DNA of 64,000 bases from Myxococcales bacterium (GCA_020633435.1 JACKDP010000001.1:517359-581358); one strand, 5' to 3'; counted from the first letter of the stretch, positions 36,934-53,318 are shown. Made by a program: numbers and translations. Notes: generated from the sequence alone by a model not told the origin.

Positions 36934-37512
36934 ATGGCCCGCACCCCCTCGACCATGATCGCCCTGGGCACCCCCTGCCCCGACTTCGCCCTCCCCGACA
37001 CCGACGGCCGCACCGTCCGCCGCGACGACTTCGCCGACGCCCCGGCCCTGCTCGTCATGGTCCTCTGCAACCACTGCCCCTTCGTCGTGCACCTGCGCAG
37101 CGCCCTCGCCGCCTTCGGCCGCGAGTACCAGGCCCGCGGCCTCGCCATCGTGGCCCTCAACGCCAACGACGCCGACGCCTACCCCGCCGACGCCCCCGCC
37201 CAGATGCCCGCCGAGAAGGCCAGCGCCGGCTACACCTTCCCCTACCTGCACGACGCCACCCAGACCACCGCCCGCGCCCTCGGCGCCGCCTGCACCCCTG
37301 ACTTCTTCCTCTACGGCCCTGACCGCACGCTCATCTACCGCGGCCAGTTCGACGCCAGCCGCCCCGGCAACAGCGAGCCCATCACCGGCCAGGACCTGCG
37401 CGCCGCCTGCGACGCGGCGCTGGCGGGGGTGGAAGTGAGCGCCGAGCAGTGGCCGAGCCTGGGCTGCAACATCAAGTGGAAGCCGGGGAACGAGCCCTCA
37501 TATTTCGGGTAG
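36934..37512 (+). CDS. thioredoxin-fold (redoxin-family) protein; 3' end is the element insertion site
   Basis: CxxC motif LCNHCPF; last codons ...NIKWKPGNEPSYFG overlap the left att repeat. Confidence 0.7.
   Translation: MARTPSTMIALGTPCPDFALPDTDGRTVRRDDFADAPALLVMVLCNHCPFVVHLRSALAAFGREYQARGLAIVALNANDADAYPADAPAQMPAEKASAGYTFPYLHDATQTTARALGAACTPDFFLYGPDRTLIYRGQFDASRPGNSEPITGQDLRAACDAALAGVEVSAEQWPSLGCNIKWKPGNEPSYFG
37467..37496. repeat. attL: 30-bp direct repeat, left copy
   Basis: caacatcaagtggaagccggggaacgagcc, 29/30 identical to 53289-53318. Confidence 0.8.
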
Positions 37513-37643
37513 TTACGGGCCCATGGCAGGCGTCTGTACAGCCAAATCGGGCCATTTCCAGCCCGAAACCTGTACAACCTGTACAGCGAGATCGTGGTCG
37601 CTCCTCAACTCGTGCCAGGGCGGGATCACCTTCCTTGGGCTCC

Positions 37644-38348
37644 TCACGCCAGCTTCCCGGCCAGGGCGACCAACCAGTCCAGATAGAGGTCGAGGCGGGA
37701 TGTGCCGTTGACCTTGGTTCGCAGGAACTTCCCGAGGCTGTTCACCCCGCGCTCGCTCCGGCCCATGTCCCTGATCGTTGCGTCTCCTCCGACGGCGATG
37801 AGCCCGTCGTTCATCGTCGCCTTCGAGGCAGGACTGCGATGAGCCATGAAGTTCCGCATGGCCTTCACCGCATCAAAGGCGAGTCCGTCCGATGCTGTCA
37901 GCGCCGCGATCTTCGCCCGGTACGTCGGCGCCAGGCGTTGATCCGCTCGCTGCTTGAACGTCTCGAAGTCCTTGAACGAGAGGTTCCACCCATCGGGGTC
38001 GAGGATGCTCCTGAGATCGGTGAGCTTGACGTGCTTGCCGGGCTCGAACTCCACGGCGCCCGCGTGCCAGGCACCGAACTTGTCTGTGATCGAGGTGCGG
38101 ATGCGGTTCTTCTCGTGGGCGATGAAGCCGCTTGCATCCTTGTTGATGGCGGCGAGAACCCAGTCAGACAGGAACGTCTCCAACCCTACCGCTGCTGCCA
38201 GCAACGTGTTCTCGGCCAACGTCGCGATGTCCGTCTTCTCGTGGGCCGTGCCGCTCAAGGACGTGCTGACGCGGTTGTAGTACACCTTCAAGTCCCCGAG
38301 ATCCGCGGCGTAGCCCTGAGCCACCTCCGTCGGGTTCGCCTTGTTCAT
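37644..38348 (-). CDS. HEPN-like (Abi2-type) protein, candidate abortive-infection RNase
   Basis: 234 aa from internal ATG with GGAGGG RBS; RNxxxH motif (MRNFMAHR). Confidence 0.5.
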   Translation of the reverse strand: MNKANPTEVAQGYAADLGDLKVYYNRVSTSLSGTAHEKTDIATLAENTLLAAAVGLETFLSDWVLAAINKDASGFIAHEKNRIRTSITDKFGAWHAGAVEFEPGKHVKLTDLRSILDPDGWNLSFKDFETFKQRADQRLAPTYRAKIAALTASDGLAFDAVKAMRNFMAHRSPASKATMNDGLIAVGGDATIRDMGRSERGVNSLGKFLRTKVNGTSRLDLYLDWLVALAGKLA

Positions 38349-38423
38349 CAGCCCTCCATCCGTCCCCGTCCGCGCACATGCTGCCGTTGGCGAGCCTATA
38401 GCAGTCGGTCTGTGGAGGTCCAA

Positions 38424-38762
38424 GTGCCCACAGCTTCTCAAGTCGAACTCGATGAGCCCGACCGCCGGATCGACGCGCTGATCGACTACTTCGCCGACGA
38501 CGGCGACGACGCCCTCCGGGCATGGGCCGTAGAGGCCCTCGCTGGCGGCCTGGGCGTAGATGCAGTTGTCGTCGAGGGGGAGAGTGCGGCCCGGCGCCTT
38601 CGGGCGCTAGGGGACGCCCTGGGGGGCCGCCTGGCGCTCGCCATCTACCAGACGCCCGAGCAAGGCCCGAGGCTGGTCGAGGCCGTGCTGGAAGGGCTGC
38701 TGGTGGGCCTGCGGGACGGCCCGCCCGAGCCGGTCAGTGAGGTCGTGCGGCGCGGCCTGTGA
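38424..38762 (+). CDS. small hypothetical protein
   Basis: GTG with GGAGG RBS 5 nt upstream; 3' end overlaps the convergent gene by about 28 nt. Confidence 0.3.
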   Translation: MPTASQVELDEPDRRIDALIDYFADDGDDALRAWAVEALAGGLGVDAVVVEGESAARRLRALGDALGGRLALAIYQTPEQGPRLVEAVLEGLLVGLRDGPPEPVSEVVRRGL

Positions 38763-39357
38763 TGGCGTCGAACGCGGCGCCCTGCAAGTAGACGCCGCTG
38801 ATCCAGAAGTCGGCCAGCTTGTCGCCGTCCCAGTCGGACTCCACGAGCCGCGCCTTGACCAGGGTGCCGTCCTCCGCGAGCCGGTCGCGCAGCGCAACGC
38901 GACCCGCGAGGTCGAGTTCCGAGAACGTCGCCGACATCTCGGGGCTGACCGACATCAGACCGAACGAGAACTGCCCGATCTCGCCCATGACCGTGTAGAG
39001 ATCGAGGCCCATCGCGGGGACGGCGGCCAGCACCAGCAGGTCGGCTTCGACGGGATCGAGGCCATGCTCCTCACGCAGGTTGACCAGCGGCAGCGCAACC
39101 CCCGCCGCGGCGCTCGCCGCGATCCGGCGGTCGATCATGGTGCGCAGGTTGCCCTCCGCGGTGGCGAGGCGGGCGACCTTCTGCTTCGTCCGGCAGCACA
39201 CGCCGTCGGACTCCGCCGCGGCGTCGATCAGCCCCACGGCCTCGTCGGCTTCCTTGTCCGCCTCGATGCGGGCGCCAAGGTGGCGGCACCTGGCCTTCAC
39301 CCACCGGATCTCGTCCGCGAGGTGGTCGAGGGGGGTCGAGTACGCGAGGGTGTGCAT
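38734..39357 (-). CDS. hypothetical protein
   Basis: 207 aa from ATG 39357 with AAGGAG RBS; no recognisable motif. Confidence 0.45.
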   Translation of the reverse strand: MHTLAYSTPLDHLADEIRWVKARCRHLGARIEADKEADEAVGLIDAAAESDGVCCRTKQKVARLATAEGNLRTMIDRRIAASAAAGVALPLVNLREEHGLDPVEADLLVLAAVPAMGLDLYTVMGEIGQFSFGLMSVSPEMSATFSELDLAGRVALRDRLAEDGTLVKARLVESDWDGDKLADFWISGVYLQGAAFDAITGRAARPH

Positions 39358-39545
39358 GGCGGTGCTCCTTGCTCTCTGGGCCATGCCATCTACTACGCCT
39401 TCGGCCCCAGTCCTGAGCCCCTCCCCCGGCCCCCGGCGGCACCATCACGTCCCGATTTTTCGGGCTTTGACCCCGTTGCGGCGCGTGTCACCGCGCAGTA
39501 CAACCGCTGTGGCAACTTGCGGCAAACAACGGCGAGGACTGCACG

Positions 39546-39749
39546 GTGCCCGAGTACCTGACCATCGACGAGGTTTGCGAGCTTCTCCAGTTGGGCAAGC
39601 GCACCGTGTACGAGCTTGCCCGGACGGGCCGCTTGCCGGGCGCCGCGAAGATCGGCGGCCAGTGGAGGGTCAACCGGGCCAAGCTCGCCGCCTGGCTGGA
39701 GGCCGGGGGCGAGTTCGCCGCGGTCGAGGGGGGCGAGCGCGACGAATGA
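39546..39749 (+). CDS. excisionase/AlpA-family HTH DNA-binding protein
   Basis: LTIDEVCELLQLGKRTVYELARTGRLPGAAKIGGQWRV; stop overlaps the SNF2 start (ATGA). Confidence 0.65.
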   Translation: MPEYLTIDEVCELLQLGKRTVYELARTGRLPGAAKIGGQWRVNRAKLAAWLEAGGEFAAVEGGERDE

Positions 39750-42595
39750 CGACCCCCTACCATGCGCAGTTCTGGGCCTACACGTTGACCGTACAGGGGT
39801 CGCCGGACTCGGTGGACGGCCTGTCGCGGGCCATCTCGAACGCCCGCGTAGACCTGAACCCGCACCAGGTAGACGCAGCCCTGTTCGCCCTCAAGTCGCC
39901 GCTGTCGAAGGGCGTCATCCTCGCCGACGAGGTGGGCCTCGGGAAGACCATCGAGGCCGCCCTGGTGATCTCGCAGCGATGGGCGGAGCGCCGCAGGCAC
40001 ATCCTCGTCGTGGTGCCCGCCTCGCTGCGGAAGCAGTGGCAGCAGGAGTTGTGGGAGAAGTTCTTCATCCCCTCGGTGGTGCTGGAGCGCAAGTCGTGGA
40101 CGCGGCTCCAGGCCGAGGGCAAGCCCAACCCCTTCGACCTCGGCGATCAGGTCGTCATCTGCTCCTACTACTTCGCCGCCAAGCACCGGGAGGCCGTGGC
40201 CCACGTCCCGTGGGATCTGGCCGTCATCGACGAGGCCCACCGGCTGCGAAACGTCTACAAGAAGGGCAACAAGACGGCGAAGGCCCTGTCCGCGGGCCTG
40301 GCCCACGCCACGAAGCTCCTGCTGACCGCGACGCCGCTCCAGAACTCGCTGATGGAGTTGTACGGCCTCGCCAGCGTCATCGACCCGCACCTGTTCGGTG
40401 ACCCCATCTCCTTCCGCGAGCAGTTCGTCCGCGAGGCGGACGAGGGCGTGCGGAACCGGCTGTTGAAGCAGCGCATCGCCGAGGTCTGCCAGCGCACCCT
40501 GCGGCAGCAGGTGCTGGAGTACGTCCGGTTCACGGAGCGCATCCCGGTGACGCAGGAGTTCTTCGCCAGCGACGCCGAGCAGCGGCTCTACGACGAGGTG
40601 TCCGAGTACCTCCGCCGCGACACCCTGTACGGCCTCCCGTCGGCCCAGCGGACGCTGATGACGATGGTGCTGCGGAAGCTGCTGGCCTCGTCGTCCTTCG
40701 CCATCGGCGGCACCCTCGACGGCCTGTTGTACCGCCTCCGGCAAGTGCAAGAGGACGTGCGCAAGGGCACCGCGGTCGCCCTGCACGATGCCGTGGAGGA
40801 CGACTTCGAGACGGTGGACGAGATCGAGGACGACTGGGAGGAGGACGAGGCCACCGACGCCAACGGCGACGACATCGACCCCGCCCTGCTGGCCGACGAG
40901 ATCGCCATCATCGAGGCGTGCTCCAAGCTCGCCGCGGGCATCCATTCCAACGCCAAGGGCGACGCCCTCCTGCGGGCACTCGCGCAGGCGTTCGAGCAGG
41001 CCGAGGCCGTGGGCGCCGCGAAGAAGGCGGTGGTGTTCACGGAGTCCCGGCGCACGCAGGACTACCTGTACCGGCTGCTGACCGCGAACGGCTACGAGGG
41101 CCGCGTCGTGATGATCAACGGCAGCAACAACGACGAGGCCGCCAAGGCCGTCTACGCGGAGTGGATGACCCGGCACGCGGACGACGGGGTGCCCACCGGC
41201 GCCCGCGCCGTCGATGTCCGGGCCGCCATCACCGAAGCGTTCAAGACCGACGCCACCATCCTGCTGGCGACCGAGGCCGCCGCGGAAGGCGTCAACCTCC
41301 AGTTCTGCTCCCTGGTCTTCAACTACGACTTGCCCTGGAACCCCCAGCGGGTCGAGCAGCGGATCGGGCGCTGCCACCGCTACGGCCAGACCCATGACGT
41401 GGTGGTCGTCAACTTCGTCAACGAGCGCAACGCCGCCGACCGCCGCGTCCTCGACCTGCTGTCCGAGAAGTTCAGGCTGTTCGAGGGGGTCTTCGGCGCC
41501 TCCGACGAGGTGCTCGGCGCCATCGAGTCCGGCGTGGACATCGAGCGGCGCATCGCGGCCATCTACCAGGGCTGCCGCACCGCCGAGGACATCGCCGCCG
41601 CCTTCGACGACCTGCGGGCCGACCTCGACGAGCAGATCACCGCGCAGATGAGCGAGACGCGGCAGCGCCTGCTCGACCACTTCGACGAGGACGTGCAGGC
41701 CCGCCTCCGCGTCCACCGCGACCTGGCCCAGGCGTCGCTCGACGAGAGGGGCCGGATGCTGTTGAACCTCACCCGGCACGAGCTTGGGGACGACGCCTCC
41801 TTCGCACCTGACCGGCCCCGGTTCGAGTACCACGGCACCGCGGCTCGTCGCGGGTGGTACAGCCTCGACTGGAAGGCGGCGGACGCCGAGGGCCTGGTCT
41901 TCTACCGCATCGACCACCCCCTCGCGCAGGGCATCGTCGAGCAGGCCCGCCAGCGACAGCTTCCCGTGCAGCACCTGGCCTTCGACTACGGCGCCTACGG
42001 CACGTCGGTCGCGGTGCTGGAGCCGTACATCGGTCGCCGGGGCTGGCTGGCGTGCAGCCTGCTGACGGTGAACTCGGTGGCCGACGAGCAGTTCGTCGTC
42101 CTGGCCGCGGTGACCGACGACGGCGAGGTGCTCGACGCCGAGTGGTGCCGACGCCTCATGCGCATCGGAGCCGCCGCCGAGGGAACGCCCGAGGCGCCCG
42201 CGGATCTGGAGCCCGCGGTCACCGGCCAGGTCGAAGGCCACCTGCGCGACGTGGAGGCCCGCAACGGGCGCTACTTCGACGCCGAGGTGTCGAAACTCGA
42301 CCGCTGGTCAGACGACCTCAAGCTCGGCCTGGAGCGGGAGTTGAAGGACTTGGACGCCGAGATCCGGGCGAAGCGCAAGGAGTCCGCGGTCGCCATCTCA
42401 CTGGCGGACAAGCTCACGGCGCAGCGGGACATCAAGGCGCTGGAGCAGCGCCGGAACCGCAAGCGGCGGGATCTGTACGAGGAACAGGACAAGATCGACG
42501 AGCAACGGGCAGCACTCATCGACGGGATCGAGCGGCAGCTTCGCACCACACATGCGGTGCAGCGCCTGTTCACCGTCCGGTGGAGCATCCGATAG
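39746..42595 (+). CDS. SNF2-family helicase
   Basis: 949 aa: LADEVGLGKTIEA (motif I), VIDEAHRLRN (DEAH), LLLTATPLQNSL, C-terminal helicase motifs and coiled-coil tail. Confidence 0.85.
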   Translation: MTTPYHAQFWAYTLTVQGSPDSVDGLSRAISNARVDLNPHQVDAALFALKSPLSKGVILADEVGLGKTIEAALVISQRWAERRRHILVVVPASLRKQWQQELWEKFFIPSVVLERKSWTRLQAEGKPNPFDLGDQVVICSYYFAAKHREAVAHVPWDLAVIDEAHRLRNVYKKGNKTAKALSAGLAHATKLLLTATPLQNSLMELYGLASVIDPHLFGDPISFREQFVREADEGVRNRLLKQRIAEVCQRTLRQQVLEYVRFTERIPVTQEFFASDAEQRLYDEVSEYLRRDTLYGLPSAQRTLMTMVLRKLLASSSFAIGGTLDGLLYRLRQVQEDVRKGTAVALHDAVEDDFETVDEIEDDWEEDEATDANGDDIDPALLADEIAIIEACSKLAAGIHSNAKGDALLRALAQAFEQAEAVGAAKKAVVFTESRRTQDYLYRLLTANGYEGRVVMINGSNNDEAAKAVYAEWMTRHADDGVPTGARAVDVRAAITEAFKTDATILLATEAAAEGVNLQFCSLVFNYDLPWNPQRVEQRIGRCHRYGQTHDVVVVNFVNERNAADRRVLDLLSEKFRLFEGVFGASDEVLGAIESGVDIERRIAAIYQGCRTAEDIAAAFDDLRADLDEQITAQMSETRQRLLDHFDEDVQARLRVHRDLAQASLDERGRMLLNLTRHELGDDASFAPDRPRFEYHGTAARRGWYSLDWKAADAEGLVFYRIDHPLAQGIVEQARQRQLPVQHLAFDYGAYGTSVAVLEPYIGRRGWLACSLLTVNSVADEQFVVLAAVTDDGEVLDAEWCRRLMRIGAAAEGTPEAPADLEPAVTGQVEGHLRDVEARNGRYFDAEVSKLDRWSDDLKLGLERELKDLDAEIRAKRKESAVAISLADKLTAQRDIKALEQRRNRKRRDLYEEQDKIDEQRAALIDGIERQLRTTHAVQRLFTVRWSIR

Positions 42596-42603
42596 GAGCG
42601 GGG

Positions 42604-44427
42604 ATGTCGAAGAAGACGAAGCTGGAACTGACCTGGATCGGCAAGGACAAGCGGCCCCGCCTGGAGCCGCGCATCCTGCTCGAAGATCCCGAACTGAGCT
42701 ACGCCGCCGACCATCGGGTTCGGCAGGGCGACATCTTCGACAACATGCTGATCCACGGAGACAACCTGCTGGCTTTGAAGGCGCTGGAGCAGGACTTCAC
42801 CGGCGCCTTCAAGTGCGTCTACATCGACCCTCCGTTCAACACCCAGCAGGCGTTTGAGCACTACGACGATGGCGTGGAGCACTCGGTCTGGCTGTCACTC
42901 ATGCGCGAGCGCCTCTCCATCGTCCACCGGCTCATGCACCCCGAGGGGACGCTGTTCGTCCACATCGACGACAACGAGCTTGGCTACCTGATCGTCCTCC
43001 TCGACGAGGTGTTCGGGCGCACCAACCGCGTGTCCATCGTCACATTCAAGCAGGGCTCGGCGACCGGCCACAAGGCCATCAACCCCGGCTGCGTGACGAC
43101 CACGAACTTCGTGCTGATGTACGCCAAGGACAAGGCAGCCTGGAAGCCGCGGAGGGTCTTCACGGCTAGGGAGCGAGACAATCGCTACAACCAGTTCATT
43201 CCGAACATCGGCGACCACCACTCCAAGTGGCGAATCGTGACGCTGATGACCGCCTTCGCCGCCAGCCAGGGGGTCACGGAGACACAGGCCAGGGGTCTGG
43301 CTCGCAAGCAGCCCGACCAACTGGACGAGTTCGTGAAGGACAACGGGCCGAGCGTGGTGCGTCTCGCAAGGCCGTCCTACGACGCCGTCAGCAAGGCTGC
43401 CCAGGCGCTCATCGACGAGTCGAACGCGAACCCCGAAGTGGTGTTCCACCTCCCGCGGGAGGGGCACAAGGACTTCTACTTCATCCGGGGCGAACGAATC
43501 CTGTTCTACAAGGACAAGCTCAGGGAGATCGACGGGCAGTACGTTGCGGGTGAGCCGCTCACGACGCTCTGGGACGACCTCCTCTCCAACAACTTGCACA
43601 ACGAAGGTGGGGTCAGCTTCCCCAAGGGGAAGAAGCCCGAAGCCCTGATCAAGAGGGTCATCGACCTGTCCACCGAGCCCGGTGACTGGGTGCTCGACTC
43701 GTTCGCAGGCTCGGGCACGACGGGGGCGGTGGCCCACAAGGCCGGTCGAAGGTGGGTGATGGTCGAACTCGGTGACCACTGCCATACCCATGTCCTTCCC
43801 CGGCTCCGAGCGGTTATTGACGGGGCCGATTCCAGCGGGAGCACGCAGGCAACCCGATGGAAAGGCGGCGGCGGCTTCCGCTTCTGCCGCCTCGCGCCCT
43901 CCCTACTGGAGGAGGACAAGTGGGGCAACTGGGTCATCAACCGGGCCTACAACAAGGAGATGCTGGCGGAGGCCATGTGCAAGATCGAGGGCTTCCGCTA
44001 CGAGCCGAGCCCGACCATCTTCTGGATGCACGGCCAGTCCACCGAGACGGACTACCTCTACGTCACCACGCAGACCCTGACCCACGAGCAGTTGCAGGTC
44101 ATCAGCGCGGAGGTCGGTGACGAGCGCACGTTGCTCATCTGCTGCTCGGCCTTCCGAGCGCGGCTCGACCAGTTCCCGAACCTCACGGTGAAGAAGATCC
44201 CCGCAGCGGTGCTCGAACGCTGCGAGTGGGGCAAGGACGACTACTCGCTGAACGTCCAGACGGTCATGGGAGAGGAGCCCGAGGCGCCCGAGCCTGAACC
44301 CGACCAGTCCGCGGGCGCCACCGTGCCGCCGCCATCGTCGAAGAAGCGCAAGGGCCGCAAGCCGAAGATGCAGGAGTTGCCGCTGTTCGCCGCGGCCCAC
44401 CATGGCAAGTCGGGAGGTGACCAGTGA
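42604..44427 (+). CDS. Type III R-M Mod-like N6-adenine DNA methyltransferase
   Basis: DPPF motif (CVYIDPPFNT) precedes the SAM motif (VLDSFAGSGTTG). Confidence 0.85.
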   Translation: MSKKTKLELTWIGKDKRPRLEPRILLEDPELSYAADHRVRQGDIFDNMLIHGDNLLALKALEQDFTGAFKCVYIDPPFNTQQAFEHYDDGVEHSVWLSLMRERLSIVHRLMHPEGTLFVHIDDNELGYLIVLLDEVFGRTNRVSIVTFKQGSATGHKAINPGCVTTTNFVLMYAKDKAAWKPRRVFTARERDNRYNQFIPNIGDHHSKWRIVTLMTAFAASQGVTETQARGLARKQPDQLDEFVKDNGPSVVRLARPSYDAVSKAAQALIDESNANPEVVFHLPREGHKDFYFIRGERILFYKDKLREIDGQYVAGEPLTTLWDDLLSNNLHNEGGVSFPKGKKPEALIKRVIDLSTEPGDWVLDSFAGSGTTGAVAHKAGRRWVMVELGDHCHTHVLPRLRAVIDGADSSGSTQATRWKGGGGFRFCRLAPSLLEEDKWGNWVINRAYNKEMLAEAMCKIEGFRYEPSPTIFWMHGQSTETDYLYVTTQTLTHEQLQVISAEVGDERTLLICCSAFRARLDQFPNLTVKKIPAAVLERCEWGKDDYSLNVQTVMGEEPEAPEPEPDQSAGATVPPPSSKKRKGRKPKMQELPLFAAAHHGKSGGDQ

Positions 44428-47400
44428 ACCGCCTCGTCAACACCATCTCGGGTCGTCTGAGCCTCCGGCCCCCGCAGCGCCAGTCGCTGGAGATCCTCGA
44501 CCGCATCTGCGAGATCGCTGACCCGACCAAGGCGACCGATCTCGCAACCGCGCTCGGGATCATCAAGTCCGAGTACCCGTCGGTCACCGACTTCGAGCGG
44601 GACTTCCCCTCGCTGTGCTTCGCCCTCGCCACCGGCGTCGGCAAGACCCGGCTCATGGGCGCCTTCATCAGCTACCTCTACCTGACCAAGCGAAGCCGCC
44701 ACTTCTTCGTGCTGGCGCCCAACCTGACCATCTACAACAAGCTGATCGCCGACTTCACCCCCGGCACGCCCAAGTACGTCTTCCAGGGGATCTCGGAGTT
44801 CGTGACCGCCCCGCCGGTCATCATCACCGGCGACAACTACGAGAGCGGCGTCGGCGTCCGAGAGGAGGCCCGGCGCCAGATGGGCCTGTTCCGGCCCGGC
44901 GGCGAGGATGCCGTCCACATCAACGTCTTCAACATCAGCAAGTTCAACAAGGACACGGGGGGCAGGAAGGGCTCGCCCAGGATGCGGCGCCTGTCGGAGT
45001 ACATCGGTGAGAGCTACTTCGACTACCTGGCCGGGCTCGACGACCTGGTGGTGCTCATGGACGAGGCCCACCGCTACCGCGCCGACGCGGGTATGAAGGC
45101 CATCAACGAGTTGAAGCCCATCTTGGGCCTGGAGTTGACGGCGACCCCCTTCACCGAGTCGGCGAAGGGGCCGGTGGCCTTCGGCAACGCCATCTACGCC
45201 TACTCGCTGGCCGAGGCCATCGTGGACGGGTTCGTGAAGGAGCCCGCGGTCGCCACCCGCAAGGACTTCGACGCCAGCCAACTCGACGACGCGAAGTTGG
45301 AACGCATCAAGCTGGAGGACGGCGTGCGCTTGCACGAGCAGGTCAAGGCCGACCTCCAAGCCTACGCCGCCAACACCGGGCGCCCCTACGTCAAGCCGTT
45401 CATGCTGGTCATCGCCCGCGACACGACGCACGCCTCGGCCCTGATCGACCTGTTCAAGTCCGAGACGTTCTTCGAGGGGCGCTACGCCGACCGCGTGATC
45501 GAGGTTCACTCGGCCCTCAAGGGCGAGGAGAAGGAGGAGACGGTTGAGCGGCTGCTGGCCGTGGAAGACCCCGCCGAGCAGACGGAGATCGTCATCCACG
45601 TCAACATGCTCAAGGAGGGGTGGGACGTAACGAACCTCTACACCATCGTCCCGCTGCGGGCCGCCAACGCCCGCACCCTCATCGAGCAGTCCATCGGTCG
45701 CGGCCTGCGGCTGCCCTACGGCAAGCGTGTCCGCAAGTACGGCCTGCCCCCCACCCACCCTGCCGACCGGCTCACCATCGTCGCCCACGACAAGTTCCAA
45801 GAGATCGTGGACGAGGCCAACCGCGGTGACTCCATCATCCGCCGCATCGACACCATCTACATCGACCCGGAGGAGGCCGCCGACGCTCCGAAGCCGGTCG
45901 AGGTGCCCCCGCTGGTCGAGCAGATTCTTGGCGGAGCCGACCGGCCTACGGTGCCGGGCCTCGGCCCCGCCCCCGCGGGTGACCCGGCCCAGGGCACCGC
46001 CCCCACCCTGCCGACCAAGAAGACGCCGACGTTCCTGACGCCCACGGCGAAGGCGGTGGCGAAGGCGACGCTGACGGCGATCACCAAGAAGACCACGTTG
46101 CCGTCGGCGAAGACGCTTCTGCAACCGGAGCAGCAGAAGAAGCTGGTCGAGGAGGTGAAGGCGCAACTTCCCGACCAGCAGGAGCTACCGGGCATCGAGT
46201 CGGAGATCGAGGAGGTCGTCAAGCAGGCCACCGAAGCCTACGTTGACCTCTCCATCGACATCCCCGAGGTGACCGTCGTGCCCACCGGCGAGGTCACCAT
46301 CGTCTACGCCGACTTCGACCTCGACACGTCCAAGCTGCCTGCGCTCCAGCCCGTCGAGCGGGACATCTACATCCAACACCTGGCGAGCCACGAGCAGCAG
46401 CAGTTGTCTTCCGGCGGTGGTGGTGTCGGCTACGAGCGGCGCCTGGAAGATCACGTTGTCCGGGCGCTCATCGACTTCGACGACGTGGACTACGACGGCA
46501 ACGCCGACCTGCTCTACAAGCTCGCGGGCCAGATGGTCGCCCACCTCCAGGGCTACCTGCCCGACGAGGAGGCCGTGAAGAACGTGCTGGTCTACTACCA
46601 GTCGCGGATCGGCAACCTCGTCCACGGCCAGATGCTGGCCCACCGGCACGAGTTGACGACCGGCTACGAGGTGAAGGTGCTGTCCGGGCACCGTCCGCTC
46701 CAGCCCTCGGTGATCAAGCTCAAGCCGAGCGAGTCCCCCCGGAACTTCCGGGCGCCGGTGGACGACAAGCGCCGCATCCCGCAGATGGTGTTCGGCGGCT
46801 TCTCGAAGTGCTTGTACCCGCTCCAGAAGTTCCACTCGGACTCGGAGCGCCGGTTCGCGGTGCTGCTGGAGATGGACAAGGCCGTGCAGAAGTGGGTGAA
46901 GCCTGCGCGGGCGAACTTCCAGATCGTCCTCAAGGGCGGCTCGCTCTACGAGCCGGACTTCGTGGTCGAGGCCGACGACGCCTTCTACATCGCCGAGGTC
47001 AAGGCCGAGGGCATGGTGCAGGAGGCCGACGTGCTGGCGAAGGCCGAGGCCGCCGCGGTGTGGTGCAGGTCGGCGACGCAGGAGGGGGCGGGCGCCAAGC
47101 CCTGGCACTACCTGCTCATCCCCGCGGACAAGATCGCCGAGAACGCCTCGTTGGCGTGGCTGGCGAAGCAGTACGAGCACAAGGCCAGCGCCCCCGCCGA
47201 GGTCGTGTCCGAGGACGCGGGCGCCAAGGTGCTGCCGTTCAAGAAGCTGGAGGGCACGGAGATCAGGCCCTTCGAGAACTGCGTGCCGCTCTACGCCGAC
47301 CTCAGGATCGCCGCGGGCCGCTTCGGCGAGGAGCTGGCCGTGGACGCGGTGCCCCAGCAGGGCGAGGTGGAGAACCCCGAGGACTACGAGTGGGTCGCCT

Positions 47401-47744
47401 ACCGGGGGAGTTCCCGGCCCCGTCGCGGCCTGTTCGTAGCCCAGGTGGTCGGCGAGTCCATGAACAAGCGCATCCCCAACGGCGCCTGGTGCGTGTTCAA
47501 CCTCGAACACGGGGCCGATGGCGAAGGTGAGATCGTCCTCGCCCGGCACGACGAGATCCACGACGGCGACCTCGGCCAGTTCACCGTGAAGTTCTACCAG
47601 CGCGAGGTGCTCGACGACGACGGCGTGCGGATCACGCTGCGGCCCTCGTCCAGCGACCCGCAGTTCAAGAAGCCCATCGTGCTGGAGAACCTGGCCGAGG
47701 GCGACCTGCGGATCGTGGCCGAGTTCGTCGAGGTGCTGCGGTAG
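44424..47744 (+). CDS. Type III Res-like helicase-endonuclease fused to a LexA/UmuD-like S24 domain
   Basis: 1106 aa: Walker A (ATGVGKTRL), DEAH (VLMDEAHRY), PD-(D/E)xK-like nuclease motif (EPDFVVEADDAFYIAEVKAEG), then about 150 aa resembling an S24 peptidase (GESM, TVKF); GTG overlaps Mod stop. Confidence 0.8.
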   Translation: MNRLVNTISGRLSLRPPQRQSLEILDRICEIADPTKATDLATALGIIKSEYPSVTDFERDFPSLCFALATGVGKTRLMGAFISYLYLTKRSRHFFVLAPNLTIYNKLIADFTPGTPKYVFQGISEFVTAPPVIITGDNYESGVGVREEARRQMGLFRPGGEDAVHINVFNISKFNKDTGGRKGSPRMRRLSEYIGESYFDYLAGLDDLVVLMDEAHRYRADAGMKAINELKPILGLELTATPFTESAKGPVAFGNAIYAYSLAEAIVDGFVKEPAVATRKDFDASQLDDAKLERIKLEDGVRLHEQVKADLQAYAANTGRPYVKPFMLVIARDTTHASALIDLFKSETFFEGRYADRVIEVHSALKGEEKEETVERLLAVEDPAEQTEIVIHVNMLKEGWDVTNLYTIVPLRAANARTLIEQSIGRGLRLPYGKRVRKYGLPPTHPADRLTIVAHDKFQEIVDEANRGDSIIRRIDTIYIDPEEAADAPKPVEVPPLVEQILGGADRPTVPGLGPAPAGDPAQGTAPTLPTKKTPTFLTPTAKAVAKATLTAITKKTTLPSAKTLLQPEQQKKLVEEVKAQLPDQQELPGIESEIEEVVKQATEAYVDLSIDIPEVTVVPTGEVTIVYADFDLDTSKLPALQPVERDIYIQHLASHEQQQLSSGGGGVGYERRLEDHVVRALIDFDDVDYDGNADLLYKLAGQMVAHLQGYLPDEEAVKNVLVYYQSRIGNLVHGQMLAHRHELTTGYEVKVLSGHRPLQPSVIKLKPSESPRNFRAPVDDKRRIPQMVFGGFSKCLYPLQKFHSDSERRFAVLLEMDKAVQKWVKPARANFQIVLKGGSLYEPDFVVEADDAFYIAEVKAEGMVQEADVLAKAEAAAVWCRSATQEGAGAKPWHYLLIPADKIAENASLAWLAKQYEHKASAPAEVVSEDAGAKVLPFKKLEGTEIRPFENCVPLYADLRIAAGRFGEELAVDAVPQQGEVENPEDYEWVAYRGSSRPRRGLFVAQVVGESMNKRIPNGAWCVFNLEHGADGEGEIVLARHDEIHDGDLGQFTVKFYQREVLDDDGVRITLRPSSSDPQFKKPIVLENLAEGDLRIVAEFVEVLR

Positions 47745-47766
47745 ACCGGCATGTAGGAGAAAGGAC

Positions 47767-48168
47767 GTGAAGCAAGAGAACCTTGACGACCTCGTCGCCG
47801 CGGTGCTGGCCGTCAACAGCTACTCCATCGAGAAGGCGTGGGCGCTTCTCCCAAAGCTGCGTGAGGCAGGGCTGACGACGCCTGTGACCTTCCCTACGGA
47901 TCTCGGACCGGCGACCGTCAAGCTCGCGTCGGCGGGGTACGACCGCGGGTTGCTCACGGAGATGTTCGCCAAGCGCCTGCTCGGCCTCATGCAGGAGGCC
48001 GGGTCCGGGGCGCTGGACGAACTGGACGCCTTCGTCGAGGCCGACCGCAAGGACGACGCGGTGGCTCTGCTGGTGACCGTGCCGGGGATCGGCCCGAAGG
48101 TGGCCCGGACCGCCTGGGAGTTGCTCCGTTCGGGACGGGGCGCAGCGGGCGCAGCGAGCAAATCCTGA
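47767..48168 (+). CDS. small hypothetical protein with helix-hairpin-helix-like motif
   Basis: GTG with AGGAGA RBS; VTVPGIGPKVA resembles an HhH. Confidence 0.45.
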   Translation: MKQENLDDLVAAVLAVNSYSIEKAWALLPKLREAGLTTPVTFPTDLGPATVKLASAGYDRGLLTEMFAKRLLGLMQEAGSGALDELDAFVEADRKDDAVALLVTVPGIGPKVARTAWELLRSGRGAAGAASKS

Positions 48169-48245
48169 TCCCTTAGTTTCGAGCATTACTTGGGGTGAGG
48201 GATTTGCTCGCTTGCCTGGGTAGCGTGCCTCGCAGGAGGTGCAAC

Positions 48246-49553
48246 ATGCCCAACTTCCCGAGCCGCATCGACATCGCCAACTCGCCCGAGTATTTCCCGA
48301 TCACGGCGCTCATCGCCGCGGGCCTGTGGCCCGACCTGACTCCGCCCGCCAAGGCCCTGCTGCCCGTCCTGTGGGACTTCCACCGGGAGTACCCCGACGC
48401 CTGCCACCCGAACCGGAAGACCCTCGCCCGGCTGTCGGGCATCAGCCCGCCCTCCGTGTCGAACGCCCTGACGGTGCTGGAGGACATCGGCATCGTGCAG
48501 ACGATCCAGACGCCGGGGCCGAGGCCGAACACCTACAAGCTCAAGTGGACGAATCTCCGGGCGCCGAAGAAGGCTGCCGCCGACACCGGATCGCCCTACC
48601 GGCGTCCGAGTGCGGACTGGGAACTGCACATGGGGACTGACGCCGAGGGCCATGCGGTCGCCAAGTACGAGCGCAAGGGGGGTGGGCTCCACCGCATGTC
48701 CGACGGCTGCTTCATCCGGGGCCAGGTCGAGATGGTGATCCACGACCTGCTCGTGGCCTGGGGCGTTCCCCACTGGTCGGAGGTCGGGTACTGCGACCTC
48801 GGCATCAAGCTCCGGCACGCGAAGTCCGGCGACCTCAACCGGCAGGCCACCGTGGACTTCGTGGTGGCGCCGGGCTTGCTCGTCGAGCGCCTCGGCCTGC
48901 CAGCGACCCAGGGGTCGGCGAAGAAGTACCGGGCCAAGTCCGCCGCGAAGATGAAGGCCGCCCGGAAGGCCGGGTGGACGGTGCTGACCATCGAGCCTGA
49001 CCAGCGGCCCGGCGACTGGCTGCTGGAGCCCATCAGGAAGGCGTGGGCCGACGCGACCATCGACGAGGCGACCCGCCTCCGGCGGCTCCTCCAAGGCGCT
49101 GGGAAGCACGAGGAGTCGCACGGTCCGAGCCGGAAGCTCGACGCCCACATCGAAGATGCGAAGGCCCGGCTGGCGGGCAAGAAGGAGCCCCGCAAGAGCC
49201 GCGGCCTGACCATGCAGAAGCGCGGCGAACATGGGTTCCCCGTGACGTACCGCTGCGACCCCATCATCGTGCTGATGGAGCAGGCCCGCCCCGCACCCGA
49301 GCCCGAGGATGACCTCGACGACTGGTTCGACGAGGTGCCGAGCGCCTACGAGCCGCAGCGCCCGCCCGACCTGCCCGCTCCCGACGAGAGGATGCTCGGG
49401 CGGCTCCGCGACCTGGACGACGAGATCGCCGACCTCGACGACCAGATGGCGGCCCTCGACGATGACAGCGACGACTACCAGGCCCTGCTGACGCAGAAGT
49501 GGGAACTCGAAGGGAAGAAGGGCGACCTGGAGGCCCAGTGCTACATGCGGTGA
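48246..49553 (+). CDS. hypothetical protein with N-terminal winged-helix-like region (possible replication/maintenance function)
   Basis: AGGAGG RBS before ATG 48246; HTH-like NRKTLARLSGISPPSVSNALTVLEDIGIV; acidic C-terminal tail. Confidence 0.45.
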   Translation: MPNFPSRIDIANSPEYFPITALIAAGLWPDLTPPAKALLPVLWDFHREYPDACHPNRKTLARLSGISPPSVSNALTVLEDIGIVQTIQTPGPRPNTYKLKWTNLRAPKKAAADTGSPYRRPSADWELHMGTDAEGHAVAKYERKGGGLHRMSDGCFIRGQVEMVIHDLLVAWGVPHWSEVGYCDLGIKLRHAKSGDLNRQATVDFVVAPGLLVERLGLPATQGSAKKYRAKSAAKMKAARKAGWTVLTIEPDQRPGDWLLEPIRKAWADATIDEATRLRRLLQGAGKHEESHGPSRKLDAHIEDAKARLAGKKEPRKSRGLTMQKRGEHGFPVTYRCDPIIVLMEQARPAPEPEDDLDDWFDEVPSAYEPQRPPDLPAPDERMLGRLRDLDDEIADLDDQMAALDDDSDDYQALLTQKWELEGKKGDLEAQCYMR

Positions 49554-49744
49554 GGGTGCCTCGACGCGGTGCCCGCTTCGGCCTCCCGCTCGCGCACGAC
49601 CGCTTCGAGGTCGTACCGGACGGCGCCGCGGAGCCTCACCACGGGGATCTGCCCGTCCCGAGTCATGCGGCGGACCGTCGAGAGGCTCACGCCGAGGGCG
49701 TCTGCAAGCTCCGTGGCGGTGAGCAGGCGGTGCATGTTGCTCAT
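49541..49744 (-). CDS. excisionase-family HTH protein
   Basis: 67 aa from ATG with GGGGAGG RBS; LLTATELADALGVSLSTVRRMTRDGQIPVVRLRGAVRY. Confidence 0.6.
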   Translation of the reverse strand: MSNMHRLLTATELADALGVSLSTVRRMTRDGQIPVVRLRGAVRYDLEAVVREREAEAGTASRHPHRM

Positions 49745-49990
49745 GTTGGCCTCCCCGGAAGTCGAGTCCATGCACAGATCGCGGCCCATAGGACGACCAA
49801 CCGGGTCGAAACGGTCAGCGACGGTCACACAGTCGCCGCCGCGGCCTCGGGGCGTCCAGAACCGTCGCTGCGGATGGTTCTCGCCGGGCCAACCGTGGGG
49901 GTTGGGACGCCGAACGGTGGGGGTTGGCCGAAGGTAGGTGGATTCGGCCCGGTGCGGCCCGCGGGGTTGTGGCCCGCGGACATGCGCGGT

Positions 49991-50629
49991 TCAGCGGGCT
50001 TCGGCGACGGCGACTTCTGGCCCACCCACCGGACGGGCCTCGGCGAGCCTGCGTCGCAGGGTCGTCCGCGGGAGGCCGAGCATGTCGGCGACCTCGCGGA
50101 CGCTGTGCCCTTGGGCGATGAGGGCCTGGGCTGCACGAAGGTCGAGGCCACGCCGCGGGCGCCCGAACTTCACGCCACGCTCGCGGGCGCGAGCGACGCC
50201 TGCCTGGACGCGCTCTTGGATCAGGGCGTGCTCAAGTTCGGCGACCACCGCGGCGAGCGTGAACAGCGCCTTCCCGAGGGCGGTGGTCGTCTCGATGTTC
50301 TCCCTGACGGACACGAACTCGACCCTGCAACGGCGGAACTCGTCGAGGGCCTCCAGCAGGTGCTGGGTCGAGCGGGCGAACCTGTCGAACCGCCACACCA
50401 TCACCACGTCCACCTCGGCGCCGCGGACGGCGGCCATGAGGCCGTCCAGGCCGGGCCGGGCCTCGGTGGTGCCGGACACGCCGTCGTCGATGAACTCGTG
50501 AACGACCTGCCAGCCGCGCTGCGCGGCCACTCGGCGAAGGTCATCAAGCTGGAGCCCCACGTCCTGCCCGTGCCCGGCGGTGCTCACCCTGGCGTACAAC
50601 GCCGCCCGCGTCTTCCGGCTCGTCGCCAT
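49991..50629 (-). CDS. serine recombinase (resolvase/invertase family)
   Basis: AALYARVSTAGHGQD (catalytic Ser region), C-terminal HTH. Confidence 0.85.
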   Translation of the reverse strand: MATSRKTRAALYARVSTAGHGQDVGLQLDDLRRVAAQRGWQVVHEFIDDGVSGTTEARPGLDGLMAAVRGAEVDVVMVWRFDRFARSTQHLLEALDEFRRCRVEFVSVRENIETTTALGKALFTLAAVVAELEHALIQERVQAGVARARERGVKFGRPRRGLDLRAAQALIAQGHSVREVADMLGLPRTTLRRRLAEARPVGGPEVAVAEAR

Positions 50630-50690
50630 CCCGTCCTCCGCGTCGTCTCCCCCAACTACGGAGTGGGCCGGAAGTCTGAGCCCCGCGGGC

Positions 50691-50785: not shown

Positions 50786-51016
50786 CGAGATTCTCGACCG
50801 TCAGGATCGGTTCTTCGGCGAGAAGTTCCCTCTCCGGCGTGTCAGAACCGATTGAAAACCGATCTGGGTTCGGATCGGGGGGCGCGATCCGGGGACTCCG
50901 GGTCACGGACATTTTGCGACCGAGCGGGCCAACGGTCTGCGGCAGGGGGTTGACTCGGGCACACCCTCGGGCCAAGATGTATCCATTGGATACAGGGCGC
51001 CTGATGGCGCAGGGAG

Positions 51017-51298
51017 ATGGTGGTGAGAGAGTACACGGAGCCGGAAGGGGATGCGGCCCAGAACCTCGGCCAGTGGAGACGTGAGTGGGAAGAAATCCCC
51101 CCCTTCCCGTTCAGCGAGTATGACGCATCGGATCGAGCCGTTGACCGCCTCGTGGTGAACTTGCACCTGGCCCTCGACGAGGAGGACGAGATTCGAGAGG
51201 TGCTGGAGCACCTGCGATGCCTCGCTACCGACTACCACAAGTGGTCGGTTCGGGCGGGCAAGCTGCTGGAACACGTCGAAGCTCAGGCCCAACGGTAG
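51017..51298 (+). CDS. small hypothetical protein
   Basis: 93-aa acidic ORF, RBS-like GGGAG at the start. Confidence 0.35.
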   Translation: MVVREYTEPEGDAAQNLGQWRREWEEIPPFPFSEYDASDRAVDRLVVNLHLALDEEDEIREVLEHLRCLATDYHKWSVRAGKLLEHVEAQAQR

Positions 51299-51302
51299 AC
51301 TC

Positions 51303-51587
51303 GTGGCTACGTCCTCTCGGTCCAAGGAACTGCCGACCGGCGCCGAGCAAGTTCGCCTGATCTTGGCGGAACTCGGCTGGACGCATGAGGTGGCGGCGGA
51401 GCACCTCGGCGTGGGCCGCGTGACCGTCAGCCGGTGGGCGAGCGGCGCCCGCGACCCCGGCGAGCAGGTACTCCGGCACCTGCGGATGATCCATCACCTC
51501 CGGGGCCTGCTCGGCGACGACCTCTGGCAGCAGGCGATGGCCGACCTGGCGAGCAGTCAGGGCTCGGAGCGGGGAGCCGCCAAATGA
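51303..51587 (+). CDS. HTH DNA-binding protein
   Basis: AEQVRLILAELGWTHEVAAEHLGVGRVTVSRWASG, HTH-like. Confidence 0.5.
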   Translation: MATSSRSKELPTGAEQVRLILAELGWTHEVAAEHLGVGRVTVSRWASGARDPGEQVLRHLRMIHHLRGLLGDDLWQQAMADLASSQGSERGAAK

Positions 51588-52072
51588 CCGAACATGCGCA
51601 GCTCGACATCCCCGCCTTGGTGGAGGAGATCAACGCCGCCGAGGACGACCCGATGTGGAAGGCGTGGACGAAGGATCGCCTGCGGCTCCAAGACCAACTT
51701 CACGAGCTTCGCGCCGTCCGAGATGCTCTCGCCCGCAAGCTCCGGGCATTGGCGCCCACGACGCCGGGCGGGGACAAGAGGCCCATGACCCGGCGGGAGC
51801 AGCGGATGGCGATGGGCGGCGGCGGCCTGTGGCCGCTGGCCCAGGCTGCGGAGATGCTGCCCATGAAGGACAACGAGGCGAGGGGCTGGCTGCGCAACGA
51901 AGGGCTCGTCGGCGACCTGGCCGGGCGTGAGGTCGTGCATTGGGGCCGCGTGCTCGACGCGCCCTACGCCACGAAGGATGAGGCGCCGTCGGTGCCTGCG
52001 AAGCAGGAGACACGGCGCCGGAAGCCGCTCCCGCGGGTGCGCCTCGGTGGCTCGTCGGGGGCGTCACGATGA
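51584..52072 (+). CDS. hypothetical protein
   Basis: ATG overlaps the previous stop; stop overlaps the integrase start. Confidence 0.4.
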   Translation: MTEHAQLDIPALVEEINAAEDDPMWKAWTKDRLRLQDQLHELRAVRDALARKLRALAPTTPGGDKRPMTRREQRMAMGGGGLWPLAQAAEMLPMKDNEARGWLRNEGLVGDLAGREVVHWGRVLDAPYATKDEAPSVPAKQETRRRKPLPRVRLGGSSGASR

Positions 52073-53202
52073 GCCCTCCAAGGAGTGCGCGACCCAAGCC
52101 CTTCTCGCTCGACATGATCAAGTGCCGGATCGTCCGCGGGCCGCACCCGGACGACCCGAACCGTTGGTACTGGCAGGCGGTCACCTACGGAGACGGTGAG
52201 CAGCGCACCATCTGGACGGGTTGGGGGTCGGTCGAGGAGGTGAAGGCCGCGCTGGCGCCGTTGCTGATGGGGATGCAGGCGGCCCCGTCGCGCCGTGAAG
52301 ACCGGGTGTCCACTGTGCAGGATCTCCTTGAGGTCTGGTTGGCGTGGCAACTCGGCCAACCGAACCTGAGCGAAGGGCGCAAGCTCAACTCGAAGAAGGA
52401 GGCAGAGCACGTCGCCGCCGTGATCGGTGATGTGCTCATCCTGCGGCTCGACACGACGACCCTGACGGAGTACCAGCGCGTGCGGCTGCGCGAGGGGGCC
52501 TCGACCGGCGTGATCCGCAACGAGATCAGCACCGTGATCCAGGCGTGGAACTGGGGCGGGGAGCGTGGGCTCGCACCGGAGCGGCGGCTGCGACGCCCCC
52601 GTTTGCAGCACAAGTCTGTGCGGAACGACTACGTTCCCGACCTGGTGGAGTTCTGGAAGGCCGTGGACGCGCTGCCCGACTCCAGACCCTGGGCTCGCAC
52701 CATGCTCCTCCTGCTGGGTGCGACGGGGGCGAGGCCAAGCGAGATCGCCGCCCTGACCTGGGAGGACATCCACTGGCGACGCCGTACCGTCCGTCTGGAC
52801 GGCAAGACCGGGAAGCGCCTGGCAGTCGTGAGCCAAGAGGTCTTGGACGAGTTGGCGCCGCACCGCCCCGACCCCGCGACTGGCCGCGTCCTCTCCGTGA
52901 GCTTGACCACGGCACGGGTGGACATCCGCAAGATCCTGCGGGACGCCTGCGTTGCGGCCAACGTGACGCCGTTCCTCCCGATGTCCATCCGCAAGATGGT
53001 CGAGAACGCGATGTTCGACGCTGGGGCCGACCCCGGCGTCGTCTCCCGGCAGCTTGGGCACACGCCGGAGGTGTCCTTGAGGCACTACCGCAGGGCGAAG
53101 TCGGCTCGCGTGGACGAGGTTCTCGCTCGTGCGGGCATCGGCACCAGGCCGGACGGCAACGTCGTGTCGCTGGCCGAGCACCGCAAGGCCAAGGACTCGT
53201 GA
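52069..53202 (+). CDS. tyrosine-type site-specific integrase
   Basis: Catalytic-domain motifs (LLGATGARPSEIAALTWEDI; LGHT...SLRHY) with the Tyr near the C-terminus. Confidence 0.85.
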   Translation: MSPPRSARPKPFSLDMIKCRIVRGPHPDDPNRWYWQAVTYGDGEQRTIWTGWGSVEEVKAALAPLLMGMQAAPSRREDRVSTVQDLLEVWLAWQLGQPNLSEGRKLNSKKEAEHVAAVIGDVLILRLDTTTLTEYQRVRLREGASTGVIRNEISTVIQAWNWGGERGLAPERRLRRPRLQHKSVRNDYVPDLVEFWKAVDALPDSRPWARTMLLLLGATGARPSEIAALTWEDIHWRRRTVRLDGKTGKRLAVVSQEVLDELAPHRPDPATGRVLSVSLTTARVDIRKILRDACVAANVTPFLPMSIRKMVENAMFDAGADPGVVSRQLGHTPEVSLRHYRRAKSARVDEVLARAGIGTRPDGNVVSLAEHRKAKDS

Positions 53203-53288
53203 CCTGTACAGCCCGACCTGTACAGCCGCAGGAGCGGCTGTCGTAACATGCTGAAACCATGCGACAAGCTGGCACAGGTGGCGGCGTT

Positions 53289-53318
53289 CAACATCAAGTG
53301 GAAGCCGGGCAACGAGCC
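53289..53318. repeat. attR: 30-bp direct repeat, right copy
   Basis: caacatcaagtggaagccgggcaacgagcc, followed in frame by the likely original gene tail (...NEPTTNLYA, stop). Confidence 0.8.

Follow-up and report, generated by a model that had tools for sequence, protein, structure and literature searches.

What placed two nearly identical copies of a 30-bp coding sequence almost 16 kb apart, one at the 3' end of a thioredoxin-family gene and the other just beyond the gene of a tyrosine integrase, is the question raised by this locus of a Myxococcales bacterium. The window, by which we mean the whole 64,000-nucleotide stretch that was analysed (GCA_020633435.1 JACKDP010000001.1:517359-581358), is numbered from its first nucleotide. 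An earlier note on this DNA, written from the sequence alone, had proposed that an integrative element bounded by the direct repeat occupies the 3' end of the gene, that it brought a replacement for that end and that it displaced the original one. Here, we conclude with high confidence that the 15.8-kb segment between the repeats is an integrative genomic island, site-specific in its insertion, whose cargo is an anti-phage defence module. The insertion is precise, the target gene is regenerated, the integrase is intact, the arm repeats are conserved and the preference for this site extends across the integrase family.

The repeat, CAACATCAAGTGGAAGCCGGG[G/C]AACGAGCC, lies at 37467-37496 (copy 1, the core of the left attachment site, attL) and at 53289-53318 (copy 2, the core of the right attachment site, attR), both on the plus strand. 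These are the positions that the earlier note had given, and the two copies are identical at 29/30 nucleotides. Both cores were located by repeat search and by alignment to the contigs with an empty site that are described below. The insert has a length of 15,792 bp, or 15,822 bp with one copy of the core. The objection that the repeat could be a common chromosomal motif does not hold in the window, where these two copies stand alone: they are the only matches in the 64 kb at up to 3 mismatches, and 0 matches were obtained in 100 dinucleotide-preserving shuffles. Moreover, no third copy was found in the window at up to 9 mismatches or at the peptide level.

Each copy encodes the peptide NIKWKPGNEP in frame, and our translations agree with those of the note on both sides. 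On the left, the open reading frame (ORF) 36934-37512 (+) is the target gene, which encodes a 192-aa protein of the AhpC/TSA-Redoxin type with a CNHC motif (Pfam AhpC-TSA 1.6e-16, Redoxin 2.6e-14). The exact protein sequence is found in the database as MCB9544683.1, "thioredoxin family protein [Myxococcales bacterium]", which comes from a metagenome-assembled genome. The frame passes through the core and closes with SYFG and a stop codon (37497-37512, +); these last four codons and the stop are derived from the element. On the right, the frame runs from the core into TTNLYA and a stop codon (53319-53340, +), and the body of the gene is missing upstream of this NIKWKPGNEP-TTNLYA fragment. A tRNA or another RNA gene was also considered as the target and was ruled out, as there are no tRNA genes in the window and no Rfam families in the segment 36000-57500.

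The site without the element is present in public data. The best database homologue of the host protein (P0001) is 99% identical, has 194 aa and ends in TTNLYA. It is encoded on two short contigs, L001 and L002, which come from different samples and assemblies. These contigs align to the window from 36741 and 36749, respectively, to 37496 with 99.3-99.5% identity, and then directly to 53289-53456 and 53289-53441 with 94-95% identity. The matches to the left and right flanks overlap by exactly the 30-bp repeat, so that a single copy of the repeat remains, and both contigs encode one intact 194-aa gene with the C-terminus TTNLYA. This is the single intact gene that the earlier note had expected of an empty site in a related genome. 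A closely related strain is thus precisely without the element and carries an empty attachment site (attB). A false join in L002 is unlikely because the contig name, k141_497083, which we read as the format of a 141-mer assembly, implies a word length greater than the 30-bp repeat. The occupied attL junction was found in four further metagenome contigs (L024-L027, 99.3-100% identity) and the occupied attR junction in contig L011. Empty-site contigs and occupied junctions both occur in public data, and therefore both alleles exist. They are distinct haplotypes and not recent excision products of one strain. As for the distribution of differences, 3 of the 4-5 that separate the empty-site haplotype from the left flank of the window lie 33-48 bp before the core (differences at 36767 and 37419-37434), and the right flank (53357-53452) is 94-95% identical against 99.3-99.5% on the left, so the two sides have diverged unequally.

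The integrase is encoded at 52069-53202 (+). It has 377 aa and matches Pfam Phage_integrase (PF00589, E 3.5e-14) and PHROG 1, integrase (4.9e-35). Its stop codon ends at 53202, 86 bp ahead of the attR repeat, a distance that the earlier note had also reported. Residues R222, K246, R308, H331 and Y340 align with R148, K172, R247, H270 and Y279 of XerD and are conserved in the family. The family is small, since a database search with the integrase gives only 16 proteins at E<=1e-10. A block coding for NIKWKPG lies beside the integrase gene (int) or at attL in 5/6 of the other contexts (L005/6/7/12, L020, L008-10, L019 and L017/18), whose integrases are 46-78% identical to that of the window. The closest context (L005, with L006, L007, L012 and L016; integrase 78%) is a complete element of ~9 kb in the 192-aa Redoxin gene of another organism. 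In L005, the order is attL, the P' arm, a winged-helix gene (PF22977) and, after further genes, an HTH_17 gene, a Cro-like gene, a conserved small ORF, int, the P arm and attR; a DUF1016/YhcG gene pair is located between int and the P arm. L020 (integrase 70%) has its attL within a Redoxin gene. In L008-10 (52%) and L019 (53%), a stranded tail beginning with NIKWK is found 117 bp and 96 bp past int, respectively.

The context L017/18 (46%) is a phage-like groundwater contig that codes for a GH25 endolysin and a ParB-like protein and gives a weak tail-fibre match. It has a NIKWKPGMGPNDCG-stop block 53 bp past int (L017 6228-6270; L018 7372), which mimics the same 3' end of the host gene. Because phage-like genes are present on both sides, this block is most simply the phage form of the attachment site (probable attP). 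In the sixth context, L021 (53%), two direct repeats ACCGTTACAAC follow directly past int. The best match among deposited phages is 34% identical over 33% of the length, the plasmid collection gave no match to the integrase, and the IMG/VR viral contigs contained no relative, either by core pattern or by integrase profile. A profile scan of 185,579 species-representative genomes returned one close relative, L012, which belongs to the L005/L006 element type, and three other loci with 23-32% identity. Taken together, the contexts fit an integrase family that is, to judge from the flanking blocks, tied to the thioredoxin-family gene site. The occupied contig L011 also contains an IS3-like insertion sequence (1586-2958, corresponding to window ~53160; rve transposase and HTH_Tnp_1) in the last codons of int, which cuts Int to 371 aa; its duplicated target looks like CAAC.

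The two tails can be assigned by comparison with homologues and with these other elements. The next closest homologues of the host protein, 81% and 75% identical, have the C-termini LTNLFA and LTHLYA, which resemble the fragment at attR, and more distant members of the family mostly end in SYFG, AYFG or similar sequences. L005 and L020, which are in other hosts, likewise have SYFG-stop at attL, followed by GTAGTT(A/G)CG... and by arm repeats, whereas the displaced tails at the far ends are host-specific: DWFLNR in L005, where SYFG is at attL, PPYYG in L008 and AYFG in L019. Judged from these tails, SYFG at attL is evidently the one that arrived with the element, and TTNLYA, with which the intact 194-aa gene of L001 and L002 also ends, the native one that was stranded at attR. 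The note's proposal of a replacement 3' end supplied by the element is therefore borne out, as the closest homologues share the attR tail and SYFG recurs at attL of L005 and L020. The host protein stays complete because the element supplies the substitute tail SYFG-stop. From the shared SYFG tails and the host-specific displaced tails it follows that attP carries ~45 bp mimicking the 3' end of the gene (NIKWKPGNEPSYFG-stop). When 10-aa windows are ranked by conservation over the 120 best homologues, GCNIKWKPGN comes third, and it lies directly ahead of the variable tail. As the core falls within a highly conserved protein block, the same site would be usable across different hosts, as is the case with tRNA genes. 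In the L005-type element, a TGG to TAG change is seen within the attR core of L006 (12350-12380) and L012 (5338), giving NIK*K, as might be expected if the stranded gene fragment were decaying.

The earlier note had also pointed to a motif that recurs just inside both ends and had suggested that it may represent arm-type integrase sites. The window contains the sequence CTGTACAG 5 times, where 0.11 occurrences would be expected, and 4/5 of these (37534, 37579, 53204 and 53218) are within ~90 bp of the repeats. The longer form ACCTGTACARC, that is ACCTGTACA(R)C, has exact matches in the window only in the arms, at 37568, 37577, 53202 and 53216, all on the plus strand, and a fifth copy at 37532 has 2 mismatches. 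The P' arm (37513-37590, +) thus has three repeats, GTCTGTACAGC at 37532, ACCTGTACAAC at 37568 and ACCTGTACAGC at 37577, which start 36, 72 and 81 bp past the core. The P arm (53202-53288, +) has two, ACCTGTACAGC at 53202 and 53216, which start 87 and 73 bp ahead of the core. In L005, the same motifs are found at the same offsets in both arms, with the pair ~70-85 bp ahead of the attR core, and the intervening DNA has diverged. Other motifs are found at the equivalent positions of the more distant members: ACCCGCACA, three times, in L020, CCCGCACAA in L008 and L019, and ACCGTTACA in L021. The direct repeats that flank the core are what would be expected of arm-type sites, and we predict them as such. 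Because the positions are conserved, the motif is element-specific and the same motif occurs in both arms of the window element and of L005, they are putative binding sites of the integrase N-terminal domain.

The single difference between the two cores bears on the place of strand exchange. In both the window and L005, the variable position is G at attL and C at attR, and since attL and attR differ identically in the two elements we infer that the strands were exchanged to the left of this position, within CAACATCAAGTGGAAGCCGGG. The attB alleles are themselves polymorphic at the G/C position (C in L001, G in L002), which makes this placement tentative. The proposed course of events is as follows. 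A circular form with an attP of ~210 bp, in which the core is flanked by the P arm (53202-53288) and the P' arm (37497-37590), would have recombined with attB. The N-terminal domain of the integrase would bind the ACCTGTACA(R)C arm sites, and strand exchange by its catalytic domain would fall in the first 21 bp of the core. For excision, a directionality factor would be required in addition to the integrase, and the candidates for it are a 162-aa protein coupled to int and an HTH_17 protein.

The 162-aa protein is encoded directly upstream of int (51584-52072, +), and its stop codon overlaps the start of int (ATGA). The ORF is kept in all the family members examined, with a homologous ORF in L005, and the alignment has 14 invariant columns. 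Its product is a putative recombination directionality factor or a co-factor of the integrase. It has no Pfam match, and hhalign does not relate it to the HTH_17 protein (probability 0.3). A single-sequence structural model has a strand-helix-helix-hairpin core with a predicted local distance difference test score (pLDDT) of 62-75 and a mean of 64.9, and can be described as winged-helix-like at low confidence; a Foldseek search of this model against the PDB found nothing below E=0.3. The HTH_17 protein, of the excisionase/AlpA type, has 95 aa (49541-49828, -; Pfam HTH_17 5.9e-10) and shares, by tblastx, 51-57% amino acid identity with the HTH_17 region of L005. Next to it is the gene of a serine resolvase/invertase of 212 aa (49991-50629, -; Pfam Resolvase 2.6e-44; PHROG 125, "DNA invertase", 8e-50), and a search of the window for inverted repeats around this gene that would mark an invertible segment gave nothing convincing. 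An HTH_17 gene and a second recombinase gene are found at the same relative position in the window (49541-50629, -) and in L005 (7540-8917, -), but the type of recombinase differs: where the window has the serine resolvase/invertase, L005 has a second tyrosine recombinase. Between the resolvase and the 162-aa protein there is an XRE/Cro-type HTH regulator of 94 aa (51303-51587, +), which matches Pfam HTH_31 and HTH_3 and the PHROG transcriptional regulator/repressor families.

The defence cargo consists of three genes on the plus strand. The first encodes a DrmD-like SNF2-family helicase of 949 aa (39746-42595; Pfam SNF2-rel_dom 1.4e-33; PADLOC DrmD 674 bits), the start codon of which is fixed by an identity of 87% over all 949 aa to the homologue from Lujinxingia vulgaris. 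The second encodes a type III Mod DNA methyltransferase of 607 aa (42604-44427; Pfam N6_N4_Mtase 2.5e-38; PADLOC MTase_III 617 bits) and the third a type III Res helicase-nuclease of 1106 aa (44424-47744; PADLOC REase_III 734 bits; Pfam ResIII 6.8e-20). Mod and Res are adjacent with an overlap of 4 bp, and by their predicted products this pair makes the cargo a type III restriction-modification system. The C-terminus of Res has a LexA/UmuD-like S24 peptidase domain (Peptidase_S24 28.8-32.3 bits, cut-off 23.3) with GESM and TVKF motifs. Homologues of Res fall into a short class of ~890-920 aa that is without S24 and a long class of ~1070-1110 aa that has it, and most of those in the top-120 list are without the domain. 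The triad is also found in Lujinxingia vulgaris (L023), 83-87% identical in amino acid sequence and located in another defence island, among GmrSD, Mrr and PIN genes; because the neighbourhood there is different, the triad is a cassette that moves independently of the island backbone.

Class 1 of DISARM, the defence island system that is linked to restriction-modification, was considered as the identity of the cargo and was ruled out, since DrmA, DrmB and DrmC are absent and the helicase, with 674 bits against NCBIfam DISARM_DrmD_b, does not reach the cut-off of 950. A single DrmA match of 119 bits falls on the SNF2 helicase itself and is far weaker than the DrmD match; among the element ORFs, none was assigned to DrmA and none matched DrmB (DUF1998) or DrmC (PLD). 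The triad with its S24-bearing Res may be a type III/DISARM-like variant that is regulated by self-cleavage, and no description of such a triad was found in the literature searched.

Two genes lie between attL and the cargo, both on the minus strand. One, at 37644-38441, encodes a 265-aa protein, has a G+C content of 0.83 at third codon positions and lies in the part of the element where G+C is lowest. Its product has no match in Pfam, PADLOC, PHROGs, NCBIfam or the PDB, and a Lujinxingia gene of equal length, considered as its counterpart, proved not to be homologous. The other, at 38734-39384, encodes a winged-helix protein of 216 aa (PF22977, Pfam WHD 6.2e-20), and L005 carries a 227-aa PF22977 gene in the same position adjoining attL and on the same strand. 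Two genes on the plus strand, which are also gene calls in L022, follow the cargo. The first (47767-48168) encodes a 133-aa protein with a weak helix-hairpin-helix match that is below the cut-off (Pfam HHH 0.0019). The second (48195-49553) encodes a 452-aa HTH_36 protein (Pfam HTH_36 3.5e-6), the true start of which may be at 48246. It is weakly similar to O-like phage replication-initiation proteins (PHROG 270, "replication initiation protein", 2.4e-8). Sequence searches of the PDB with the winged-helix, 265-aa and 452-aa proteins returned nothing useful. Among all the ORFs of the element, no capsid, terminase, portal, tail or lysis gene was recognised with Pfam and PHROGs, and Pfam and NCBIfam gave no domain of a relaxase, of a coupling protein or of type IV secretion.

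Several observations weigh against this reading of the segment. No excised circle or attP junction of the element was found; the single scan for the core joined to P', in limited Joint Genome Institute (JGI) metagenomes, which could reveal attP as well as further attL junctions, gave the L005 contig alone. The integrase family does not conserve the first His of its HxxR motif, and one member, L021, shows no NIKWK block near int. The copy of the element in L011 has an insertion sequence in the 3' end of int, and the copy in at least one population is thus damaged. The role proposed for the 162-aa protein is read from its position and conservation. Furthermore, low G+C persists to the right of attR, and composition alone cannot delimit the element. 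Some of these points would suit an immobilised relic, which integrated once, lost excision and has since been inherited only vertically. The missing attP junction in the core-plus-P' metagenome scan, the insertion sequence in int of L011, the stop codon gained by the displaced tail in L006 and L012, and the fact that the empty and occupied alleles are distinct haplotypes and not recent excision products all agree with it. However, the window encodes a full-length integrase whose catalytic residues are intact, the two att cores agree at 29/30 positions, none of the five arm repeats is damaged and the coupled ORF upstream is uninterrupted, and we therefore consider a relic to be rather unlikely. 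That part of the gene's 3' end was duplicated locally, in place of site-specific integration, is so improbable as to be practically negligible. A duplication would account for a gene fragment that is present twice and has no other support, and it is contradicted by the precise empty site of a related strain in L001/L002; besides, the repeat is adjoined by an integrase and coincides with a shift of composition, the two tails are unlike and come from separate lineages of the protein family, and the same architecture is seen in unrelated hosts.

The element could also be a defective prophage or a phage satellite, descended from or mobilised by temperate phages with the same integrase family and attB, that has retained only a lysogeny-replication module (int, Cro/XRE and the O-like initiator) and the defence cargo. 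The phage-like contig L017/L018, with an integrase of 46% identity and a probable attP 53 bp past int, speaks for such an origin, as do the XRE regulator, the HTH_17 protein and the weakly phage-initiator-like protein of the element. Phage satellites have sizes in a range that includes 15.8 kb, which counts for the satellite form. We consider this reading unlikely, since the window element, L005 and the visible part of L020 all lack capsid, terminase, portal, tail and lysis genes, IMG/VR holds no relatives by pattern or protein, and the best integrase of a deposited phage is 34% identical over 33% of its length. Of the features of a satellite resembling the phage-inducible chromosomal islands (PICI), the element has int, an XRE regulator and the weak O-like initiator match, and no packaging-redirection or capsid-remodelling gene was recognised among its ORFs. 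Still less probable is an integrative mobilisable element, excised by its own integrase and hitch-hiking on a conjugative element through an unrecognised origin of transfer (oriT). Small islands without transfer genes, of the Salmonella genomic island 1 (SGI1) type and in trmE/dusA, are mobilised by conjugative plasmids according to PMC8409611 and to bioRxiv 10.64898/2026.01.13.699239, and several genes of the element that received no function from Pfam, PHROGs or NCBIfam leave room for such a mechanism; against it, no ORF encodes a relaxase, a coupling protein or a type IV secretion domain, and the integrase is unmatched in the plasmid collection. A bolder proposal is that an undescribed integrase family is common to temperate phages and to small islands without structural genes, using as attB, in different hosts, the NIKWKPGNEP-coding block of a thioredoxin-family gene that is widespread, and changing its arm motifs from element to element; in its boldest form, the island would be a satellite or "hitcher" of those phages. 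We offer this as speculation and think it very doubtful. If it were true, the island, which would hold the attachment site of same-family phages and also carries a restriction system, would both exploit and exclude them.

The preferred reading, a site-specific integrative island with its limits at the two cores, also has to accommodate the composition of the flanks. The earlier note had named the G+C content inside and outside the element as a check. The difference is found on the left, with 0.677 between the repeats against 0.761 in the 37 kb leftward, and fails on the right, where 0.669 is measured over the 3.7 kb past attR, a segment of STAND NTPase and tetratricopeptide repeat (TPR) genes. 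This segment lies outside the insertion because the empty-site contigs run on into it for at least ~125-140 bp past the core and because there is no further att copy. A tandem older island as the source of the low G+C at 53.3-57 kb was likewise ruled out, as no degenerate third att copy was found to the right of attR at up to 9 mismatches or at the peptide level. Promoter and terminator scans gave counts no higher than the shuffled expectation.

The flanking genes have features of their own. Directly to the right of attR, at 53407-56800 (-), a STAND-type NTPase ORF and a TPR ORF overlap by 53 nt in different frames and may therefore be one frameshifted gene. The TPR part has 8 tandem units of 138 nt that are 62-80% identical to the reference copy, and the same region in L011 is shorter by ~966 nt (7 units), either because the locus is truly polymorphic or because the assembly collapsed there. 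PADLOC gave a weak generic TPR match for the STAND/TPR genes and nothing else. In the left flank, the large ORF 32647-35163 (-) has a dozen or more degenerate cysteine-rich units, with 15 in the largest repeat family; its DNA repeat families D2-D6 have a spacing of 90-201 nt and the local G+C reaches ~0.79. In this it resembles the cysteine-rich repeat proteins of myxobacteria.

The mode of action of the element is already familiar, and the current understanding of such elements is unchanged by it. What is added is an exactly delimited mobile island, with attL, attR, attB and predicted arm sites, in a poorly studied, uncultured and very G+C-rich myxobacterial lineage, and a protein-coding integration target for which we found no description in the literature searched. 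No paper linking an integrase to a thioredoxin-family target was found in a search that was not exhaustive. The integrase family is small, its target of 21-30 bp is identical across the host contigs examined and its arm sites are readable, and it could be put to use for site-specific integration in high-G+C bacteria. In addition, a type III restriction-modification/SNF2 defence cassette is seen to be carried on an island that restores its target.

Compared with known systems, the cargo is closest to type III restriction-modification, as Mod and Res match its profiles strongly, with the extra S24 domain of Res as the difference. The SNF2 helicase is most similar to DrmD of class 1 DISARM, of which DrmA, DrmB and DrmC are missing here. 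The proposed attP is similar to that of lambda-type phages in having direct arm repeats 36-87 bp from the core on both sides, int beside the P arm and a coupled small gene upstream; it differs in that the candidate directionality factor has no detectable similarity to the Xis/HTH_17 families and in that the arm sites are predicted from sequence. With respect to the target, e14 and phage 21 in icd of E. coli provide a parallel: a tyrosine integrase inserts these elements in the 3' end of the gene, a substitute end is supplied, by which gene function is preserved, and the native fragment is displaced to the far junction. The window element is alike in its 3'-end insertion, its substitute tail and its displaced fragment. 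The target gene, the host phylum and the integrase family are different, the substitute segment is ~45 bp here (15 codons including the core), and the window element is without phage structural genes.

The integrases of dusA elements and of SGI1-type islands in trmE/dusA form a dedicated family per conserved gene and are found in prophages and in small islands that lack transfer genes and have variable cargo, as described in PMC4482086 and PMC8409611. The likeness lies in an integrase family that, in many hosts, keeps to a single conserved gene of the housekeeping type. The difference is that dusA elements insert at the 5' end and the window element at the 3' end. The family of the window integrase is also small in the databases searched, with its 16 proteins at E<=1e-10. 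In islands of the tRNA and transfer-messenger RNA (tmRNA) genes (the Islander principle), the target is split and regenerated by island sequence, and the regenerated target and the displaced fragment mark the two ends, according to PMC4383910. Here, likewise, the core falls in a highly conserved stretch that is usable in many hosts; the target in the window, however, is a protein-coding gene, and the conservation is at the level of the peptide and of its codons (NIKWKPGNEP).

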